Shown: positions 28,218 through 36,297, counted from the stretch's first letter. The stretch is 64,000 nucleotides of DNA from Thermoplasmata archaeon (GCA_035507575.1 DATJNY010000006.1:1930-65929), one strand, 5' to 3'. Program-made: numbers and translations. The notes: a model not told the origin generated them from the letters alone.

Positions 28218-29048
28218 CTACTTGCGCGCCGGAGTGCGGCGGCGCGCGGCCACTCGGGTGACGAATATAAAGACCGCCCCGAAGAACGCGACGGCACCGG
28301 CGAGATACCAGAGCGTGTAGTTCGGCGGGGGACCCGGCACGTAGAACGTCGTGGAGTACGTCGTCCCGCCGCCCGCGAACGCGACGAGCCCGTGCTCGTT
28401 GACGAGCGAGACGGTGAAGGTGTGGTCGCCGCTCGAGAGCCCGAGCGTCGCGTACTGGAACGTCGCGACGTAGCTGGAGTGACCGGTGAGGGTCGGGACG
28501 CTGATCGAGCCGACCGGGGCGCCGTCGAGGTCGACGGTGAGCGAGAACGCGAGGATCGTCGAGCTCGTCGTCGAGAGGATCGTCATCGAGAGCGTGTACG
28601 GCTGCACCACGTTGACGGTGTAGGTGAGGTTGATCGACGCGTTCTCGCTCCCGTAGGTGGAGGTGATCTCGACGAGGATCGTGAGCGCCTCGGTGACGTT
28701 CCCGACGGTGAGCAGCGTCTGCTGGGGCGTCCCGTTCAGGATGCCGGACTCGGTCGGGGAGAGCGAGACCCCGGTCGTGTTGACGCCCGTGACGGACGCG
28801 TAGAACGTGATGTTCCCGACCTGGGTGCCGTTCGCCGCGATCGCCGGGCCGCCCGTTCCGTTGATGCCGAGGAACTTGTTCGCGTTGTAGGCGAGCACCT
28901 TCGGTCCGGTGATGTTCCCCGCGACCGGCGTCGTCGCGCTCGCGTCGGCGGTGATCCGGCCGGGCCCCAGATGCGAAGCGCCGACGGCCCCGGCGAGACC
29001 GGCGGTCACGAGGAGCGCCAGGATGGCGAGCGGGAGGAGGAGCCTCAC
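28218..29048 (-). CDS. Secreted, C-terminally anchored, sequon-rich protein (putative N-glycoprotein)
   Basis: The GTG at 29048 overlaps the aglB stop (GTGA). It has a signal peptide ([24 protein letters not shown]), at least nine N-x-S/T sequons, and a C-terminal TM helix plus basic tail ([17 protein letters not shown]). Confidence 0.55.
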
Positions 29049-32000
29049 CGGCGCACCCACCTCCGGCTCCGCCACCAGCGGTACGTGATCACGCCCAGCA
29101 CGAGGGCGATCGCCGGGACGAACGAGAGCAGCGGGATCACCCAGTCGGGAAGGCCCGACGGAGGCGACCCGATCGACGGACCGGTGACCGTGACCGGCGC
29201 CGTGCCGTTCGAGTTCCCCGTCGTGATCGAGGCGGTCGGCACGGCGATCGTCGTCGACGCCTGGTACGACCCGCTGTGGTTCACGACGGACGCCTGGACG
29301 GTCACGTGGCCAACGGGCGTGAAGATCGACGACGTCGCGGTGAGGTTCACGGAGTACGTCGAGTTGGTGAACGCCGCGATCGAGACCGTCGGGTTCGCGA
29401 GCGGTCCCGAGACGCTGCGGAAGCCGACCTGCCATCCGAGCACGGCGATCCGCGCCGCGTCGACGACGCTGAGCGTCACGGTCTCGGGCACGTTACCGGT
29501 GTTGGCGAGGTAGAACGGCACGAGGGCGTGGCTGATCCCGATCTGCGGCGGCGACGACGTGGTCGCCCCGACGCCGATCCCATAGAACGGAACGACCGTG
29601 ACGGTCGGGCTGATCGAGCCGATCGAGGTGCCGTTCGCGAGCTCGAAGCTGATGACGACCCCGGGATGGGTGGCGGCGGTGTTCGCCGGCACCTGGATGA
29701 CGACGTTGCCCGAGACGGACTTCCCGGCCGGACCCGGCTGGAGGGTGACGTTCGAGAACGAGTACGTGAATCCCCAGTAGGACGGGGACCCGACGGGAGT
29801 GACGGTGACCGGAACGTTCCCGGTGTTGCGGATCGTGAACGCGAACGACGCCGTGCCGGGGGACGTCACCGTCGCGCTGGTCGCCCCGACGATCGTCGCG
29901 TTCGTGCGGTACACGTACTGGTAGGTGAGGTCGAGCGTCACGCCGACGTTGCCGCTCACGACCTTCACCGTCGCGCTCGCGTTCGCGTCCGCGGGGAGGC
30001 CGTTCGGCAGGCCGTAGGAGGAGGCGTGGAGCGTGTACGTTCCGACCGGGAGCGCGACGAGCAGTCCCCCGGACGGGCTCACGTTCTGGTACTGGGCGAC
30101 GACGCCGAAGGCGTTCGTCACCGTGACGTTCGCCGGAGCGAGCAGCGACGCGCCGGACGGCGGGGCGATCGCGATCGACGCCGCCCAGGTCGGCGCGAGG
30201 AGGATCGAGACGGGCGCGGAGGCGGCCGCCGAGACCGTCACGCTCGCGAACCCGGCGAGCGGTTCGCTACCTCCCCCGCCGGCCGCGTAGAGGGAGTAGC
30301 GGCCCGGAAGCACCCGAAGCGCGAAGGAGCCGTTCGCCGAGGTCGTGACGGAGAGCGCCGGGGCGGTCGACGGCCCATAGATCCGGAGCGTGCCCGAGAT
30401 CAAGCCGGGGACCCCCGTGGCGGAGAGCGTGCCATTCAGCCAGACGAGCTCCGTCGAACCGACCACGGGGACCGAGCACGAGGCCCCGCTCGAGCCGAGC
30501 GTGCAACTCGCCCCCGGCTCCGAGACCCAGTCCTCGAAGTAGTTGCCGGTCGAGCTCGCGACCTCCTGACGGGCCGTGAGGGAGACGGCGTACGTCGCCG
30601 CGCCGGGCAGCGTCGCCGAGAACGTCCCGTTCTCGACGGGGACGAGCGCGGTCGCCCCGGACGGGGCCGTGAGCGTCGCGACCGCCGAGACGGAGACGAG
30701 TTCGCCATACGGGTCGTGCAGCGTGCCGGAGAGCGTGTAGCCGACGGTCGTGAGCGCCAGCGAGGGCGTCACCTTGCCCGTCGCGGAGATCGTCACCGGC
30801 ACGAGGACGCTGTACGCCGTGGAGCCCGAACGCGTCGTGGCGTACGCGGAGTAGCTCCCCGGTGGCGCGAAGAATCCCTTCGTGTAGGCGGTCCCGTTGA
30901 CCGTCGTGTGGAATCCGGCGCTCGAGAGCGTGACGTTCGTCGCCCCGAGGACCGCTCCCGTGAGGAGCGAGATCGTCCCGGTCGAGTTCGTCTGCGAGAC
31001 GAGGGTAAAGGAGGTGCTCGCGACGACCGCGCCGAACGCGATCGTGATCGAGCCCGGCGCCGTCGGACGGTACTGGAGCGAGCCGTTCCCCGTCCCGGCG
31101 AAGCCCGAGATCGAGTAGGTGCCCGGCGGGAGGCCCGTCGTCCAGCTCGGTCCTCCGATCAACGTGCGGTTCACCGCGGTCACGCTCTCGGCCGTGAGGT
31201 TGAGCGTGATCGAGGTGCCGGAGGGAACGCCGGTCACGGTGATCGTCGTGGGAACCGTGGTGAGCGAGAGTGGGAACTTCGACATCGCGGCGAGGCCGGT
31301 CGGGGAGATCCCGCACTCGGACGACGGAACGAACCCGACGAGGCCGGCCGAGACGCAGTACGCCGTGGCGGAGAGGGGCAACGCTTGAGGCACGTAGACC
31401 GCCGCGATGCCGCTCGAGTCCGCGAGCGCGGTGACCGACGGCCCCGCCGAACCGGCGGAGACGGTGACCCGGGCCCCGGCCGCGGCGAGCCCCGGAGTCG
31501 TCCCCGCGGTGGTGCCCACGAAGAACCGGGCGGCGACCGACGTGGACGGCACGAGATTGAGCGCCGTCGGATAGGCGAGCGCCACCGAACCGAGCGCCGC
31601 GTAGACGGTGCTGCCCGAGGCGTTCGAGCCCTGGAGCGCGAGGACGGAGTAACTGCCGGCCGGCAGGTAGAACGCGTACGCGCCCGAAGCGGCCCACGTC
31701 ACGACCGGATCACCGGCCGACGTGTACGCGAGGACGGCGGTCGGCGTCGAGGAGGACGCGCCCGAGGCCGTCGCCACGCTTCCGGAGAGGCGGATCGCCG
31801 GCGTCAGCGTGATCGCGGTGGCCGCGTTCGGGGTGAGGGAGGAGGCGGCGATCTCCCCCAAGCCGGCGTAGAGCGTCGCCCCCACGAACCCGAGCGCCGA
31901 GACGGAGTAGTTGCCGAGCGGGAGCGAAGCGGTGGCCACGCCGTTCGGGCCCGTGAGGACGGTGGTCCCGTTCACCGCGGCCGCCTGGAGCGACGCGATC

Positions 32001-35000
32001 GGCGAGACGGAGCTGTTCGAGTACGACGCGATCGGCGAGAACTGCACCGGAATGTTCGCGGCCGGCGCGCCGTTCGCGGCGAGCGTGACCGAGACCGTCG
32101 CGGTCGGAACGAGCGTCAGGTTCGTCGCGAACGTCGAGCTCGGGCCGCTGATCACCACCCGCACGCCGGCGGACCGCTCGGAGGTGCCGGGCAAGGTCGC
32201 CACGAGCGTGTAGTTGCCGGGCGGGAACCCGGAGAGGGTGAAGTTGCCGGTCGCGTTCGTCGTGTTCGTCTGGGAGAATCCGCCGGCGCTCGAGAGCGAG
32301 ACGACCGCCCCGTTCGCGAGGGAGCCCGAGCTCAAGTACACCTTCCCCGACACGCCTCCGGCCCCCAGCCCCGCCGTCGCGTTGGTCGGGACGGCCGGCG
32401 TCACCGTCAGGTCGGTCTCCGTGTAGTTGTAGCCGCCGAAGAGGACGTTGTAGTGGTAGATCCCCGGCGGAACGTTCGTGAGCGAGAACGCTCCGCTCGC
32501 GTCGGTCGTCACGGTGATCTTGGAGAGGTTGGTCGATCCCCACAGCACGACCTTCGCGTTCGAGAGGAGCGGATCCGTGGAGACGTAGGCGGAGTTGTTC
32601 GCCGTGTTGTAGTAGACGAAGCCCGAGACGGAGCCCGCCGGGACCGTGATCAGCTCCTGGATGCTCGGGGCGTCGAACGAGAGGCCGAGCGCGTTCGAGA
32701 CGGTGATGTTCACCTGCTTGAGGAGGATGTTGCCCTGCTGGCTCAGCCCCTCGAACGTGCCGGTCGTCACGTTGATGCTGTCGTTCCCGGGGGGGAGGAC
32801 CAGCGAGAAGGCGCCGTCCGGGGCGGTGACCGCGGTCATGTGCGGGATGCCCCACTGGTCGAAGACGGTGACCCGCGCGCCGCCGACGGGCGCCCCGTTC
32901 GGCAGGCGGACGTCCCCGAAGACGGTCTGGCCGGGGTAGTACTGCAGCATCGACTCCCCGCCCTCGAAGTACATCGTCGCCGAGGTGTTGGCGACCCCGA
33001 CGCCGGCGGCCTGCTGCGCGAGCGCCTGCCACTGGTTCGTGGCGACGAAGCAGCTCGGGTCGGTCTTCGCCTGGGTCGCGTTGTCGCAGTAGTACGCCGT
33101 CTTGTAGACGACCTCGAAGTGCTGGAGCATCCAGCCGGGCTCGACCGGGTCGCTGATCAGCGATCCCTCGAGACCCGGGATCCCCGCCGACTCCCCGATG
33201 TCCGTCCCGTTGTACCCGAAGTACGTCCGGTAGATCATCGAGTTGTAGAACGGCGCGAAATAATTGATGTAGTAATTCACGGGAGTCACGTCGGCGGGGA
33301 CCGAGCCGAGCGGGTAGTAGTTCCCGTCGGAGCCCAGCACGGTGACGTTGAAGTACGTCGTGGGGACGCCGGCCGAGTCGATGATGCGGCCGGTCAGGTC
33401 GGCGGGCGCGTAGTAGATGCCCGTATCGGTGCCGCTGAACGGGATGAGCCGGCTGTCCGCCATGTCGTAGCGGACCGACCATCCCGTGTACGCCTGGACG
33501 TCGTCGTAGATCTTCGCGACGCCGCTCAGCGTCTGCGAGGTCGCGATGAAGTACGACACCGCCATGTACATCGCGTTCTGCGCGGTCAGCGTGTTCGGAT
33601 TGACGGGCAGGTAGCGGTCGGGATGCGCGACCACGAGGCCGACGTCGGAGCTCTGGTTCGCGAGGAGGTTGTGGAGCTGCGTGAGGTTGAGCCCGTCGCT
33701 CGAGAGGATCGTGTTCAGCCCCGCGGGTAGGTACGTCGCGCCGGATTTCGTCTGCTCGGCGGAGAGGAGGGTCGTCGTGAGGATCGCGATCGCGTTCGAC
33801 TCGTTCTGCGCCAAGAGGAACTGGCCGGCGGGGTCGATTCCGTTCTGGAAGTTGTCCGCGACGGACGGATGGTTGCCCTGATCGATCGCCTGGAAACCGT
33901 AGTCCCACCAGCTCACGAACGCCGGACGTTGGGAGACCGGTACGTTCGTATCCTGTTGGGCGAGCCAATTGTAGCCGGCGCTATCGTACTGGTTCGACGT
34001 GTCGATCGAGGTCCCCGCGGCACCGAAGTAGTTCCCGCTCGTCGATTGATTCCCTTTGAGGAACGACGGGAGGGTGTCGTAGACCTGCGACGAGAGCGCG
34101 GTCTTCGTGTTGCCCGGGATCCCCGCGTCGATCGACACCCAGACGTTGGGGAGCACGACGACGAGGACGACGAGGAGGACCAGCACGTGGCGAGGCTTGA
34201 ACGCCTTGCGGAAGGCGGCGGCCTGGCTGCGCCGATCGGAGAGCGAGGCGACGGTCCGCCGGAGTTCCGGGTAACTCCCGACGTCCAGCGCGCGCTTGAT
34301 CGCTTCCGCCGGCAGGAGCGCGAACGCGGGAGAACCGAGCAGGAAGAACTTCGCGGCCGAGATCGGCAGATAGATGGAGAGCACCGCGAAGACGAGGAAG
34401 ACGACGTGCCAGCGCTTGAAACGCCCCTTCGCGAGCGTGTAGATGAAGATCGCGAGGCCCGCGAACGCGAGGAAGAACGTGACCACCCCGTAGCCCACGA
34501 CGAGCTCGTCGATCGACGGCGCCTGGGCCTCGGCGACGGTCGAGTAGATCAGGGTCTTCGCGAAGTATCCCTGCCCCGTGACGATGTTGACGAAGTACGT
34601 CGGTTCGAAGACCGCGAGGAATGCGGCCGCGGCGACGACGAGGAGCCCCAGGGCGGGGATCGAGAAGACCCACGGTACGTCCCGCAACAGAAGGAACGGC
34701 AGCAGCAGGACGAGGACTCCGAAGAACAGCAGGAGCGGCAGGTCGAACCAGGTCGCGAACTGGTGTTGGACGAGGTAGTACGGGATCGCCATCGGGAACC
34801 CGACGAGCCCGACGATCCAGGTCACGACGTACAGCCCGAAGGAATCGACGTGGCGGATCCGCTCCGCGATCATCGCGATGAAGATCGAGACGCCGATCAC
34901 CGCGACGGCGTACGTGTACCCCTGCCAGGCGAGGGCGAGCGCCCCGAGGCAGACGCCGGTGAACACCGCCCATTTGACCGCCGTGCGTTCGGTCCGGAGG

Positions 35001-35641
35001 AACGCCCGTAACCCCGGAAGGTACTGGGACGGGTGGCGGTAGCTCTCGATCCACCGACGCGATCCGACCGCCTTGACGGTCCGGATGTAGGCGTAGATCG
35101 TGATCAGGATCACGAAGGTGTAGAACGAGAGATAGTTCGCGTAGCCGAAGATCGAGGAGTCGATGTTCGCGCTCAAGAACGGGAAGATCAACGCGGCGAT
35201 GAGACCCATGCGCTTCCCGCTGACCTCCCGGCCGATCAGGTAGACCGGGAACACGCCCAGCGCGGCCCAGAGCGGGGCCTGGAGATCGAGGAACCACGCC
35301 CCCGCCGCGACGGCGTTGCCCCCGAACGCCGGAGCGAAGACGATCCCGAGGACCGCGTTCATCCAGTCGAACAGCGGCTCCCGGGGATTGTACCCCCCGT
35401 AGGGATAGTGGAGCAGGGGATCGAAGACGAGATTCTGGTGGTTCAGGATGATGTACGTCGTGACGCGCGAGTGGTAGTAGGAGTCCGAGCCGCCCGCGTA
35501 GCTGAACAGCGGGCCGAACTGCTGGATGATCGGGTACGTCCAGATCGTTCGGATGGCGAACGCCATCCCGAACGCGGCGAGCAGAATGGCGACCGTCCAC
35601 CCGTGACGATGCCACCAACCCGTCTGAGTCGACTCCATCAC
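29045..35641 (-). CDS. aglB: Archaeal oligosaccharyltransferase AglB (STT3 family) with a C-terminal surface-domain extension of about 1300 aa
   Basis: It has a polytopic N-terminal core with GGSDSYYH and the WWDYG catalytic motif (33896..33910). From about residue 905 there are tandem beta-sandwich repeats, then CARDB/NEW3-like NTGNVP segments, and a C-terminal TM anchor (IPLLSFVPAIALVLGVITYRWW). Confidence 0.9.
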   Translation of the reverse strand: MMESTQTGWWHRHGWTVAILLAAFGMAFAIRTIWTYPIIQQFGPLFSYAGGSDSYYHSRVTTYIILNHQNLVFDPLLHYPYGGYNPREPLFDWMNAVLGIVFAPAFGGNAVAAGAWFLDLQAPLWAALGVFPVYLIGREVSGKRMGLIAALIFPFLSANIDSSIFGYANYLSFYTFVILITIYAYIRTVKAVGSRRWIESYRHPSQYLPGLRAFLRTERTAVKWAVFTGVCLGALALAWQGYTYAVAVIGVSIFIAMIAERIRHVDSFGLYVVTWIVGLVGFPMAIPYYLVQHQFATWFDLPLLLFFGVLVLLLPFLLLRDVPWVFSIPALGLLVVAAAAFLAVFEPTYFVNIVTGQGYFAKTLIYSTVAEAQAPSIDELVVGYGVVTFFLAFAGLAIFIYTLAKGRFKRWHVVFLVFAVLSIYLPISAAKFFLLGSPAFALLPAEAIKRALDVGSYPELRRTVASLSDRRSQAAAFRKAFKPRHVLVLLVVLVVVLPNVWVSIDAGIPGNTKTALSSQVYDTLPSFLKGNQSTSGNYFGAAGTSIDTSNQYDSAGYNWLAQQDTNVPVSQRPAFVSWWDYGFQAIDQGNHPSVADNFQNGIDPAGQFLLAQNESNAIAILTTTLLSAEQTKSGATYLPAGLNTILSSDGLNLTQLHNLLANQSSDVGLVVAHPDRYLPVNPNTLTAQNAMYMAVSYFIATSQTLSGVAKIYDDVQAYTGWSVRYDMADSRLIPFSGTDTGIYYAPADLTGRIIDSAGVPTTYFNVTVLGSDGNYYPLGSVPADVTPVNYYINYFAPFYNSMIYRTYFGYNGTDIGESAGIPGLEGSLISDPVEPGWMLQHFEVVYKTAYYCDNATQAKTDPSCFVATNQWQALAQQAAGVGVANTSATMYFEGGESMLQYYPGQTVFGDVRLPNGAPVGGARVTVFDQWGIPHMTAVTAPDGAFSLVLPPGNDSINVTTGTFEGLSQQGNILLKQVNITVSNALGLSFDAPSIQELITVPAGSVSGFVYYNTANNSAYVSTDPLLSNAKVVLWGSTNLSKITVTTDASGAFSLTNVPPGIYHYNVLFGGYNYTETDLTVTPAVPTNATAGLGAGGVSGKVYLSSGSLANGAVVSLSSAGGFSQTNTTNATGNFTLSGFPPGNYTLVATLPGTSERSAGVRVVISGPSSTFATNLTLVPTATVSVTLAANGAPAANIPVQFSPIASYSNSSVSPIASLQAAAVNGTTVLTGPNGVATASLPLGNYSVSALGFVGATLYAGLGEIAASSLTPNAATAITLTPAIRLSGSVATASGASSSTPTAVLAYTSAGDPVVTWAASGAYAFYLPAGSYSVLALQGSNASGSTVYAALGSVALAYPTALNLVPSTSVAARFFVGTTAGTTPGLAAAGARVTVSAGSAGPSVTALADSSGIAAVYVPQALPLSATAYCVSAGLVGFVPSSECGISPTGLAAMSKFPLSLTTVPTTITVTGVPSGTSITLNLTAESVTAVNRTLIGGPSWTTGLPPGTYSISGFAGTGNGSLQYRPTAPGSITIAFGAVVASTSFTLVSQTNSTGTISLLTGAVLGATNVTLSSAGFHTTVNGTAYTKGFFAPPGSYSAYATTRSGSTAYSVLVPVTISATGKVTPSLALTTVGYTLSGTLHDPYGELVSVSAVATLTAPSGATALVPVENGTFSATLPGAATYAVSLTARQEVASSTGNYFEDWVSEPGASCTLGSSGASCSVPVVGSTELVWLNGTLSATGVPGLISGTLRIYGPSTAPALSVTTSANGSFALRVLPGRYSLYAAGGGGSEPLAGFASVTVSAAASAPVSILLAPTWAASIAIAPPSGASLLAPANVTVTNAFGVVAQYQNVSPSGGLLVALPVGTYTLHASSYGLPNGLPADANASATVKVVSGNVGVTLDLTYQYVYRTNATIVGATSATVTSPGTASFAFTIRNTGNVPVTVTPVGSPSYWGFTYSFSNVTLQPGPAGKSVSGNVVIQVPANTAATHPGVVISFELANGTSIGSISPTVTVVPFYGIGVGATTSSPPQIGISHALVPFYLANTGNVPETVTLSVVDAARIAVLGWQVGFRSVSGPLANPTVSIAAFTNSTYSVNLTATSSIFTPVGHVTVQASVVNHSGSYQASTTIAVPTASITTGNSNGTAPVTVTGPSIGSPPSGLPDWVIPLLSFVPAIALVLGVITYRWWRSRRWVRR
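29150..32929 (-). repeat. Protein-level tandem repeats (carboxypeptidase-regulatory-like beta-sandwich units) within the aglB extension
   Basis: About ten recurrences of the pattern G-x-F-x-L-x(2-4)-P-[PA]-G-x-Y (for example DGAFSLVLPPGN, SGAFSLTNVPPGIYHY, TGNFTLSGFPPGNYTLVA, NGSFALRVLPGRYSLYAA, LLVALPVGTYTLHAS). Boundaries are approximate. Confidence 0.6.
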
Positions 35642-35684
35642 CGCGGCTCTCCCCGAACCGGCGGCGCGCGAGACCTGGGGGGTG

Positions 35685-35692
35685 TATAAATA
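35685..35692 (-). promoter_or_regulatory. TATA box (TATTTATA on the minus strand) upstream of aglB
   Basis: A strong AT-rich box 47-50 nt upstream of the GTG/ATG pair at 35641/35638, which implies aglB has its own promoter. Confidence 0.5.
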
Positions 35693-35769
35693 GGCTGCCC
35701 GTCCCCGGCGGTCCGGCCGTCAGAAATTCGACGTCGCGCGTCGCCCCGACGCATCGCGCGAGCGGCCGC

Positions 35770-36297
35770 TCAGTCGACCGCCCGGAAGCGGTAGAACCAC
35801 CGACCGTCGCCGAGCGCGTACGGCTCGACGCGCACGCGATCGCCCACGTGGAGCCCGGTCCACGCCCGACCTTCGATCCGCCCGAAGAGCCGGAGCGGCG
35901 AGCCGTCCAGGTCGACGAGCCCGACCGCGAACGGGACCTCCGCCTCGAGGCCGAGCGGGGCGCCGCCCAGGACGGCGCTGAACGCGTAGATCGTGCCCGT
36001 CTCGGGTAGGTCGGCCCAGTCGAGATCCTCGGTATGACACGTCGGGCAGGCGGTCCTCGGCGGCCAGTGCCACGCGTCGTCCTTCCGGCAGCGGGTGGTC
36101 GAGAGCCGACCCTCCCGGAGTCGGTCGTAGAACCGGGAGAGCCGCGTTTGGTCCGCGCCTTCGAGCGGGAAGAAGTCCAGGAGGAACGGTCGCTTCTCCT
36201 TCGGGCGGTCGGGAGCCGGGGCGGTTCGCGCTTCGTCCGACCCGGCGGGAGGGGGCCCGGACGGCGCGGTACGACGGGCGCGCACTTCGGCGCTCAC
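35770..36297 (-). CDS. DUF35 OB-fold / Zn-ribbon protein (thiolase partner), paralogue A
   Basis: The GTG at 36297 overlaps the thiolase stop (GTGA). It has an OB-fold C-terminus (GTIYAFSAV...VGLVDLDG...RVRVEP). The Zn ribbon is partly degenerate (RC...CPTCH), and there is an N-terminal extension of about 50 aa. Confidence 0.75.
   Translation of the reverse strand: MSAEVRARRTAPSGPPPAGSDEARTAPAPDRPKEKRPFLLDFFPLEGADQTRLSRFYDRLREGRLSTTRCRKDDAWHWPPRTACPTCHTEDLDWADLPETGTIYAFSAVLGGAPLGLEAEVPFAVGLVDLDGSPLRLFGRIEGRAWTGLHVGDRVRVEPYALGDGRWFYRFRAVD

Follow-up and report, generated by a model that had tools for sequence, protein, structure and literature searches.

Giant aglB gene and coding frame

A 64,000-nucleotide (nt) stretch of DNA from Thermoplasmata archaeon (GCA_035507575.1, DATJNY010000006.1:1930-65929), referred to here as the window, was found to encode a giant form of AglB, the signature enzyme of archaeal N-glycosylation. 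The coding sequence (29045..35638, minus strand, stop codon included) specifies 2197 amino acids (aa) from an ATG and is followed by a small partner gene. An initial annotation, made from the sequence alone, had described an AglB core that continues into a long array of beta-sandwich repeats and ends in a second membrane anchor, and had treated the protein as exceptional. The fusion proved to be genuine, as there was no stop and no frameshift and every close relative was fused. The protein was not organism-specific; it was found phylum-wide, including in the genome record of Thermoplasma volcanium, and the giant two-anchor form is the normal AglB of the phylum Thermoplasmatota. The initial annotation had not picked up the coupled partner gene, the kinship of the repeats with NOMO or the departure of the EL2 catalytic motif from its canonical form.

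Read from a GTG, the open reading frame (ORF; 29045..35641, minus strand) was stop-free over 2198 codons and was the longest of the region. The ATG lies one codon inside this GTG, at 35638. A database protein of identical sequence (P0001) has a length of 2197 aa. Numbering from the ATG is used below for the anatomy of the protein, and numbering from the GTG (2198 aa), which was that of the initial annotation, where stated.

The G+C content of the window was approximately 70% throughout. Third-position GC was 0.86–1.00 in each 100-codon interval along the whole gene, and that of positions 1 and 2 was 0.34–0.67. Long ORFs overlapping the giant aglB on both strands (e.g. 29276..33730, plus strand) were rejected as shadow frames of a 70% GC gene because their GC peak sits in position 1. 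The uniform third-position GC, together with the assignment of the overlapping ORFs as shadows, therefore indicates a single coding sequence that includes the junction between AglB and the repeats. A chimeric join or missed stop at this boundary had been a worry of the initial annotation, which the continuous frame and the codon-position GC, uniform across the boundary, have cleared. The unusual length, and nothing else, speaks for an assembly chimera, or a missed stop or frameshift, having united two genes; the recurrence of this architecture on numerous independent contigs (soils, peat, hot springs and isolate genomes) and the even codon-position GC have in effect refuted it.

Distribution and conservation across Thermoplasmatota

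A search of 5.8 billion clusters returned 421 matches, the best 120 of which were all 2135–2211 aa long with 54–100% identity and 97–100% query coverage. When one genome per GTDB species was searched, 537 loci were found to encode a relative, and locus details were taken from the best 80 of the 537. These 80 all belonged to Thermoplasmata metagenome-assembled genomes (MAGs) of soil and peat origin, among them that of Candidatus Lutacidiplasma silvani; the published GC of its order, 69%, is in keeping with the window. Matches in the best 80 ran to residue ~2187–2198 wherever the contig permitted, and identity to the ~2,200-aa query protein was 46–100% over more than 120 clusters and these loci. 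An exhaustive HMMER scan with the core alone revealed that relatives at 30–36% identity were still 2,000–2,775 aa long. The orthologues of 2,000–2,800 aa were colinear across Thermoplasmatota in hundreds of MAGs. Named orthologues were TVG1271204 of T. volcanium GSS1 (2,076 aa, UniProt Q979C6), with which the BLASTP alignment was colinear through the extension, and those of Ferroplasma sp. (2,056 aa), Caldiplasma sukawensis (2,093 aa) and Methanomassiliicoccus luminyensis (2,173 aa). The phylum thus represented spans wall-less Thermoplasma, gut and rumen Methanomassiliicoccales and abundant soil lineages.

Characterised AglBs fall far short of this size, as the initial annotation had stated: they measure 590–1,050 aa and end after the catalytic domain, with 754–1,054 aa in one survey (PMC5131992) and 875 aa for AfAglB-L, so that the Thermoplasmatota form is more than twice that length. 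The survey of homologue lengths revealed no relative with the two parts as separate, unfused genes, and the short matches that were checked were frameshifted copies or fragments, such as those cut by a contig end. Two candidate short forms were rejected: the 954-aa P0121 comes from a gene frameshifted into three pieces that share one 1.48-Mb contig, and a protein of 2,201 aa sits in the same cluster; P0171, a record marked as partial, clusters with a protein of 2,152 aa. Relatives of 1,100–1,250 aa had no more than two or three repeats.

Mean identity to the query among 118 homologues was 0.79 for the transmembrane (TM) core, 0.70 for the catalytic domain, 0.63 for the first beta-sandwich domain (R0) and 0.38–0.54 for the following domains (R1–R12). 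The C-terminal helix and tail, at 0.71, were as conserved as the catalytic domain.

Full-text literature searches brought up no account of a giant, doubly anchored AglB fused to NOMO-type repeats, or of its partner, and an earlier mention may exist. The giant form apparently is undescribed, though it has stood in public records under inconsistent names since the T. volcanium genome. Public annotations include 'peptide transporter', 'glycosyltransferase family 39' and 'carboxypeptidase regulatory-like'. Of the records behind P0171, P0290, P0411 and L012, one carries the taxon name [Eubacterium] cellulosolvens and another, a MAG, is listed as 'bacterium'; this odd taxonomy is probably due to contamination or mislabelling.

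STT3 core and catalytic site

The STT3-type membrane domain (aa 1–505; 34124..35638, minus strand), recognised by Pfam STT3, a profile match to AfAglB-L (PDB 3WAJ) and hydropathy, contains ~13 hydrophobic helices. It is followed by the extracellular catalytic domain (aa 506–900; 32939..34123, minus strand), which carries WWDYG and a clade motif, HPxVADNFQxG. Pfam STT3 (PF02516) scored 41.6 bits against a cutoff of 24.5. A search of the PDB with the single sequence gave weak matches only and a profile was required; the profile of diverse relatives matched AfAglB-L 3WAJ over residues 3–596 (E=4e-47). WWDYG (33896..33910, minus strand; aa 577–581) was invariant in all relatives examined, and its position at 578–582 in GTG numbering was as the initial annotation had read it.

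Alignment with AfAglB placed D52 (in GGSDSYYH) of external loop 1 (EL1) at the catalytic D47, and this residue was invariant in the family. In EL5, TVAE (aa 367–370, in STVAEAQ) aligned with the TIXE motif; E370 was invariant in the close family and the Glu column was kept in nearly all clade relatives. The acidic xxD/DxD motif of EL2 was absent, as D161-H-H163 of AfAglB-L aligned with N168-Y-L170 ('YANYL') of the query (ANYL: aa 167–170; 35129..35140, minus strand). Most giants carry (A/S/G)DHD at this point and Thermoplasmatales carry SDGRMH; in the query and its close relatives N-Y-L is nearly invariant. In the closest relatives this change was accompanied by an invariant Glu in EL1, giving NPREP (NPREPLFDW, aa 84–92) where NPRPP is found elsewhere. 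The pairing had exceptions, as two slightly remoter NYL-type proteins had NPRAP and one DHD-type protein had the Glu. The EL1 Glu of NPREPLFDW is possibly a relocated carboxylate. As for the Ser/Thr pocket (DK/MI), a canonical DxxK or MxxI could not be placed and the clade-conserved D728-x-R730-L-x-P-F is a candidate; the AlphaFold2 model of the core was poor, with a predicted local distance difference test score (pLDDT) of 58, and was set aside as inadequate for the DK motif or the catalytic geometry. The archaeosortase A-associated STT3 subfamily model TIGR04154 gave 221.7 bits, under its cutoff of 450.

The active site thus appears to be remodelled rather than dead, because the remaining catalytic residues and the whole core are under strong purifying selection, and the protein would retain oligosaccharyltransferase (OST) activity. 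The replacement of the metal- and substrate-binding EL2 motif (D161/H163 in AfAglB; ADHDA in most giants) by ANYL, and the TIGR04154 score below cutoff, could instead be taken to mean that the STT3 core of the query lineage is inactive and has been kept as a polytopic anchor for a surface protein. This is very unlikely. D52, E370, WWDYG and the HPxVADNFQ block are all invariant, no other part of the protein is as conserved as the core, and N168-Y-L is constrained, not decaying, as shown by its near invariance. The change also occurs together with the new EL1 Glu. The T. volcanium orthologue likewise departs from DxD, with SDGRMH, and a sister species is known to N-glycosylate proteins; moreover, no second STT3 was present within the 64-kb window. 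The ANYL variant raises the question of which residues STT3-family catalysis truly requires. A metagenomic, high-GC STT3 relative of 978 aa (P0258), possibly a degenerate paralogue, kept WWDYG and was devoid of three other features: the EL1 Asp (GGGEAF), the EL2 motif (ASPAP) and the Glu of TIXE (ATLTGAPD).

Compared with AfAglB-L (PDB 3WAJ/5GMY/7E9S, 875 aa), the query shares the 13-TM STT3 domain, the EL1 Asp, the TIXE-type Glu, WWDYG and a terminal beta unit. It is ~1,200 residues longer, owing to ~12 additional beta-sandwiches, the stalk and a second TM anchor with its cytoplasmic tail, and it further differs in the N-Y-L that stands in its lineage for the D-x-H/D-x-D of EL2, in its coupled partner gene, and in its TIGR04154 score below cutoff.

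The beta-sandwich extension

Approximately 13 beta-sandwich domains (aa 901–2134; 29237..32938, minus strand) were recognised by Pfam searches of each segment, hhalign, AlphaFold2 and Foldseek. The terminal beta unit of AfAglB-L (about residues 785–830) aligned with query residues ~903–1000, which correspond to R0, a domain common to ordinary long AglBs; an ordinary long AglB therefore equates to roughly the first 1,000 residues, and ~12 beta-sandwich domains lie beyond it. R1–R10 are transthyretin/CarboxypepD_reg(NOMO)-like and the last two or three domains bear NTGNVP motifs.

Pfam CarboxypepD_reg scored 94.9 bits. Three domains, R0 included, passed the PF13620 threshold (906–969, 44.6 bits; ~1025–1088, 37.8 bits; ~1098–1168, 49.7 bits; GTG numbering). 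Two more were sub-threshold, and the others were tied in by hhalign and fold only. These matches, eight P-x-G-x-Y motifs inside the extension, the profile-profile comparison by hhalign that ties the repeats to one another and an all-beta model agree with the tandem carboxypeptidase-regulatory-like repeats proposed in the initial annotation. The two NTGNVP(V/E)TV motifs that it had also noted were found, at 1939 and 2047 (GTG numbering); its CARDB/NEW3 label for these segments is weak, as NEW3 (14.9 vs 24.4 bits, E=0.03) and PKD (19.0 vs 23.5 bits, E=0.0014) were below the Pfam cutoffs and Pfam gave no CARDB match in the query. The best PDB sequence match of the repeats was NOMO2 of the BOS complex of the endoplasmic reticulum (ER), with E=5e-16 to 6e-20. 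Pfam NOMO1-like_2nd, NOMO_3rd and NOMO_5th gave weak or faint sub-threshold matches.

In the AlphaFold2 model of residues 1000–2198 (GTG numbering; mean pLDDT 82), an all-beta string leads into a disordered stalk of ~30 residues and a terminal helix; the predicted template modelling score (pTM) of 0.45 means that the model holds no confident inter-domain packing. Foldseek matched the extension only to Ig-like strings (e.g. BaTIE, pilins, macroglobulin MG domains), with TM-scores below ~0.15 relative to the query that are informative on domain type only. Charged residues made up only 4–7% of the extension, as also in the giants of acidophiles, and two cysteine pairs were invariant. No paralogue of the extension was found within the 64-kb window.

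The protein contained 43 N-x-S/T sequons, none of which fell in residues 1–500. Residues 996–2150 held 32, compared with 13.5 expected from composition, which bears out the dozens attributed to the extension by the initial annotation. The enrichment in the extension had a median of 2.3–2.8 fold across ~200 giants, and 21 of the 43 sequons were kept in at least 75% of homologues, in domains that are themselves only ~45–50% identical.

Stalk and second membrane anchor

The beta-sandwiches are followed by a Ser/Pro/Gly/Thr-rich stalk (aa 2135–2160; 29159..29236, minus strand) that is predicted to be disordered (pLDDT <50), and by a second membrane anchor (aa 2161–2197; 29048..29158, minus strand), which comprises a 14th TM helix (hydropathy 2.46, helical in the model) and a basic cytoplasmic tail. 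The C-terminal hydrophobic helix and short tail were thus present as first described, and nearly all giants end in such a helix and basic tail. STT3 proteins have their N-terminus inside and their catalytic domain outside, and the positive-inside rule applies to the final tail. Because of this topology and this rule, the extension would be extracellular and tethered at both ends; anchoring at two ends, as initially proposed, fits an STT3 C-terminus that lies outside, a final TM helix and a basic tail.

The query tail matched none of the curated C-terminal sorting-signal models (PGF-CTERM, other archaeosortase signals). Several distant giants (P0201, P0241, P0187, P0178, P0207 and P0214) had PGFE/PGFG-type tails where others have a plain anchor. 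Of these, P0201 and P0241 score above the cutoffs for Loki-CTERM or Heimdall-CTERM, and P0201, like P0187, comes close to that for PGF-CTERM. Archaeosortase-type signals are a mark of surface proteins, and in giants with such tails AglB itself would be an archaeosortase substrate.

The extension evolves faster than the core (41–64% vs 69–85% identity), which could point to a polyprotein. Cleavage after the AglB C-terminal domain would then yield an ordinary AglB and a C-terminally anchored glycoprotein of ~115 kDa before glycan addition, and the fusion would serve only the co-translational, stoichiometric glycosylation of a released surface protein. A 152-kDa mannose-rich membrane glycoprotein of Thermoplasma acidophilum, cited in PMC2952790, is in the size range of the glycosylated extension. 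We consider such processing unlikely. No linker or conserved cleavage motif is visible, the well-conserved junction domain R0 has its homologue in the last beta unit of AfAglB-L and runs straight into R1, and relatives with naturally split genes were not found. To our knowledge, no gene has been assigned to the 152-kDa glycoprotein.

The coupled partner gene

A gene of 276 aa (28218..29048, minus strand) begins with a GTG that overlaps the AglB stop codon by 4 nt (GTGA). Its product begins with a signal peptide, continues through two beta domains that hold ~10 sequons and closes with a TM helix and basic tail. The gene lay immediately 3′ of aglB in 70 of the best 80 related loci. Homologues with the same 4-nt overlap followed the giant aglB in T. 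volcanium (E=4e-13) and on an M. luminyensis-type contig (E=3e-10); the homologous partner genes were L081:12228-13007 and, on the M. luminyensis-type contig, L082:10519-11256. Across three orders (Lutacidiplasmatales-like MAGs, T. volcanium and the M. luminyensis-type contig) the family is a small type-I membrane glycoprotein of 245–276 aa, with a weak CARDB match and a conserved 'PPNY' ahead of the TM helix. The shared overlap in three orders therefore suggests a conserved, co-transcribed two-gene unit, in which the partner is translationally coupled to AglB and is probably its physical partner.

On the M. luminyensis-type contig the partner is followed by a gene (L082:11437-11760) for a 107-aa thioredoxin with a weak Pfam match to OST3_OST6. 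OST3 and OST6 are thioredoxin-like subunits of the eukaryotic OST. The longest giants (P0198, P0223, P0236 and relatives, 2,500–2,800 aa) carry internal CARDB domains, and at least one giant, that of L083, has no separate downstream partner gene; the partner may be fused into these longest giants (weak similarity, E=0.13).

The partner bears on one further explanation, namely that the chain, the C-terminal TM helix and the partner pack on STT3 and capture nascent proteins or lipid-linked glycans, so that the protein would be a built-in multi-subunit OST like that with eukaryotic type-I subunits and not a coat protein. It would account for a coupled type-I partner kept in three orders, for a C-terminal TM helix and tail conserved like the catalytic domain, for repeats related to NOMO, a translocon-associated ER protein, and for the thioredoxin of the M. 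luminyensis-type locus. CarboxypepD_reg domains have a carbohydrate-binding-like fold, which also counts in its favour. However, the C-terminal helix shares no phylum-wide motif beyond hydrophobicity and a basic tail, thirteen domains far exceed the needs of a docking platform, homology to ribophorins or OST48 was not detected, and the model lacks confident inter-domain packing. We regard this as a tentative alternative that is probably incorrect. The eukaryotic type-I OST subunits (ribophorins, OST48/Wbp1) do have luminal beta domains and a C-terminal TM helix beside STT3, and the partner has the same layout; the likeness is architectural only, without demonstrated homology of sequence or fold.

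Proposed function of the giant AglB

The protein consists, in order, of a 13-TM STT3 domain, a WWDYG domain, ~13 beta-sandwiches, a flexible stalk and a 14th TM helix with its tail. The extension, outside the cell and held at both ends, would be glycosylated as it emerges, probably in cis by its own catalytic domain, to give a glycan-covered rod or arch with a contour of roughly 35–50 nm. This length is drawn by analogy with NOMO1, a type-I 'beads on a string' luminal spacer (PMC8327139), since ~3 nm per bead over 13 beads gives a contour of ~40 nm. Together with the small partner, the arch would be built into the cell surface as a coat or glycocalyx scaffold and/or as a spacer around the enzyme. 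We give this reading, in which the extension is an extracellular, self-glycosylated scaffold or spacer, a probability of about 0.5.

The S-layer-like array and the glycocalyx proposed in the initial annotation are plausible, and wall-less Thermoplasma and Ferroplasma do possess a giant AglB. Several observations weigh against it. No lattice-forming or known S-layer domain was detected in the query protein, the query tail fits no sorting-signal model, and the family is present in every Thermoplasmatota lineage sampled. To judge by its strong conservation, the segment of C-terminal TM helix and tail may take part in a specific interaction instead of being a passive anchor. The absence of the acidic EL2 motif from the query lineage also makes self-glycosylation in cis an assumption.

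Two kinds of known protein resemble the extension. NOMO (Nodal modulator, a BOS subunit; PDB 9C7V) has sequence-related tandem transthyretin/Ig-like domains in a long bead string on the outer or luminal side, ahead of one TM helix at the C-terminus and a short tail in the cytosol, and it has the same structural neighbour, BaTIE. By analogy, the extension could act as a spacer as NOMO does. NOMO, with ~12 Ig-like domains, carries a signal peptide and exists in the ER as a separate type-I protein that partners Nicalin and TMEM147; in the query the array is fused to STT3 in an archaeon and no BOS partners were identified, so the relation is one of resemblance and not membership. Archaeal surface (S-layer) glycoproteins, including PGF-CTERM substrates, likewise have a sequon-rich beta region, a Ser/Thr/Pro stalk and a TM helix with a basic tail; the query differs from them in that its N-terminus is a polytopic enzyme and not a cleaved signal peptide, and in that its tail is without a sorting signal.

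A bolder extension of the scaffold reading, which is doubtful, is that the Thermoplasmatota OST is a self-contained envelope module in which the STT3-NOMO-like chain, glycosylated in cis, is a major surface glycoprotein of these mostly wall-less archaea and the CARDB-like partner is a second subunit. The chain could then be the 152-kDa Thermoplasma glycoprotein, possibly processed. If true, the physical joining of STT3 to a NOMO-type array would give archaea a counterpart to the way in which the glycosylation and translocon-accessory machineries associate in the eukaryotic ER. The architecture points to a link between the glycosylation machinery and cell-surface construction, of which no discussion was found in the literature; the idea is testable in the cultured T. 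acidophilum, T. volcanium and M. luminyensis, and the annotation of the family can be corrected.

Neighbourhood, promoter and leader

The gene order, conserved within the taxonomic order of the query (Lutacidiplasmatales/UBA184), was thiolase, a gap of ~680 bp, aglB, the 276-aa gene, aEF-1beta and YdjM. No agl or glycosyltransferase cluster was found in the 64-kb window, in which the neighbours are housekeeping genes (thiolase, aEF-1beta, YdjM, Topo VI A, KatG and DnaK). The ~570 bp between the thiolase gene and the aglB promoter (35720..36290, minus strand) contain an ORF without a Pfam match, and related loci have a gap similar in size.

The TATA box TATTTATA (35685..35692, minus strand), read directly from the sequence, lies ~47 nt 5′ of the ATG. 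It is followed by an initiator/leader, GGTCTCGCGCGCCGCCGG, and then a small GC-rich hairpin that reaches the start codon (35639..35675, minus strand). The gene's own TATA box, at the position given in the initial annotation, was conserved in relatives: CTATTTATA recurred with this spacing in 56 unique related loci, the proteins of which are only 46–75% identical. GGTCTCGCGCGCCGCCGG was almost invariant across 30 aligned loci, and CTATTTATA, GGTCTCGCGCGCCGCCGG and the short hairpin all recurred in the 56 distinct loci (L001–L077). Folding of single sequences gave the hairpin in most loci, with a stability not above that of shuffled sequence (mean z −0.3). RNAalifold was uninformative on the leader because MAFFT misaligned the variable hairpin. 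A double change from G-C to A-U was seen in the hairpin stem at three loci (L039, L070 and L077). The aglB promoter and leader were far more conserved than would be expected of intergenic DNA.

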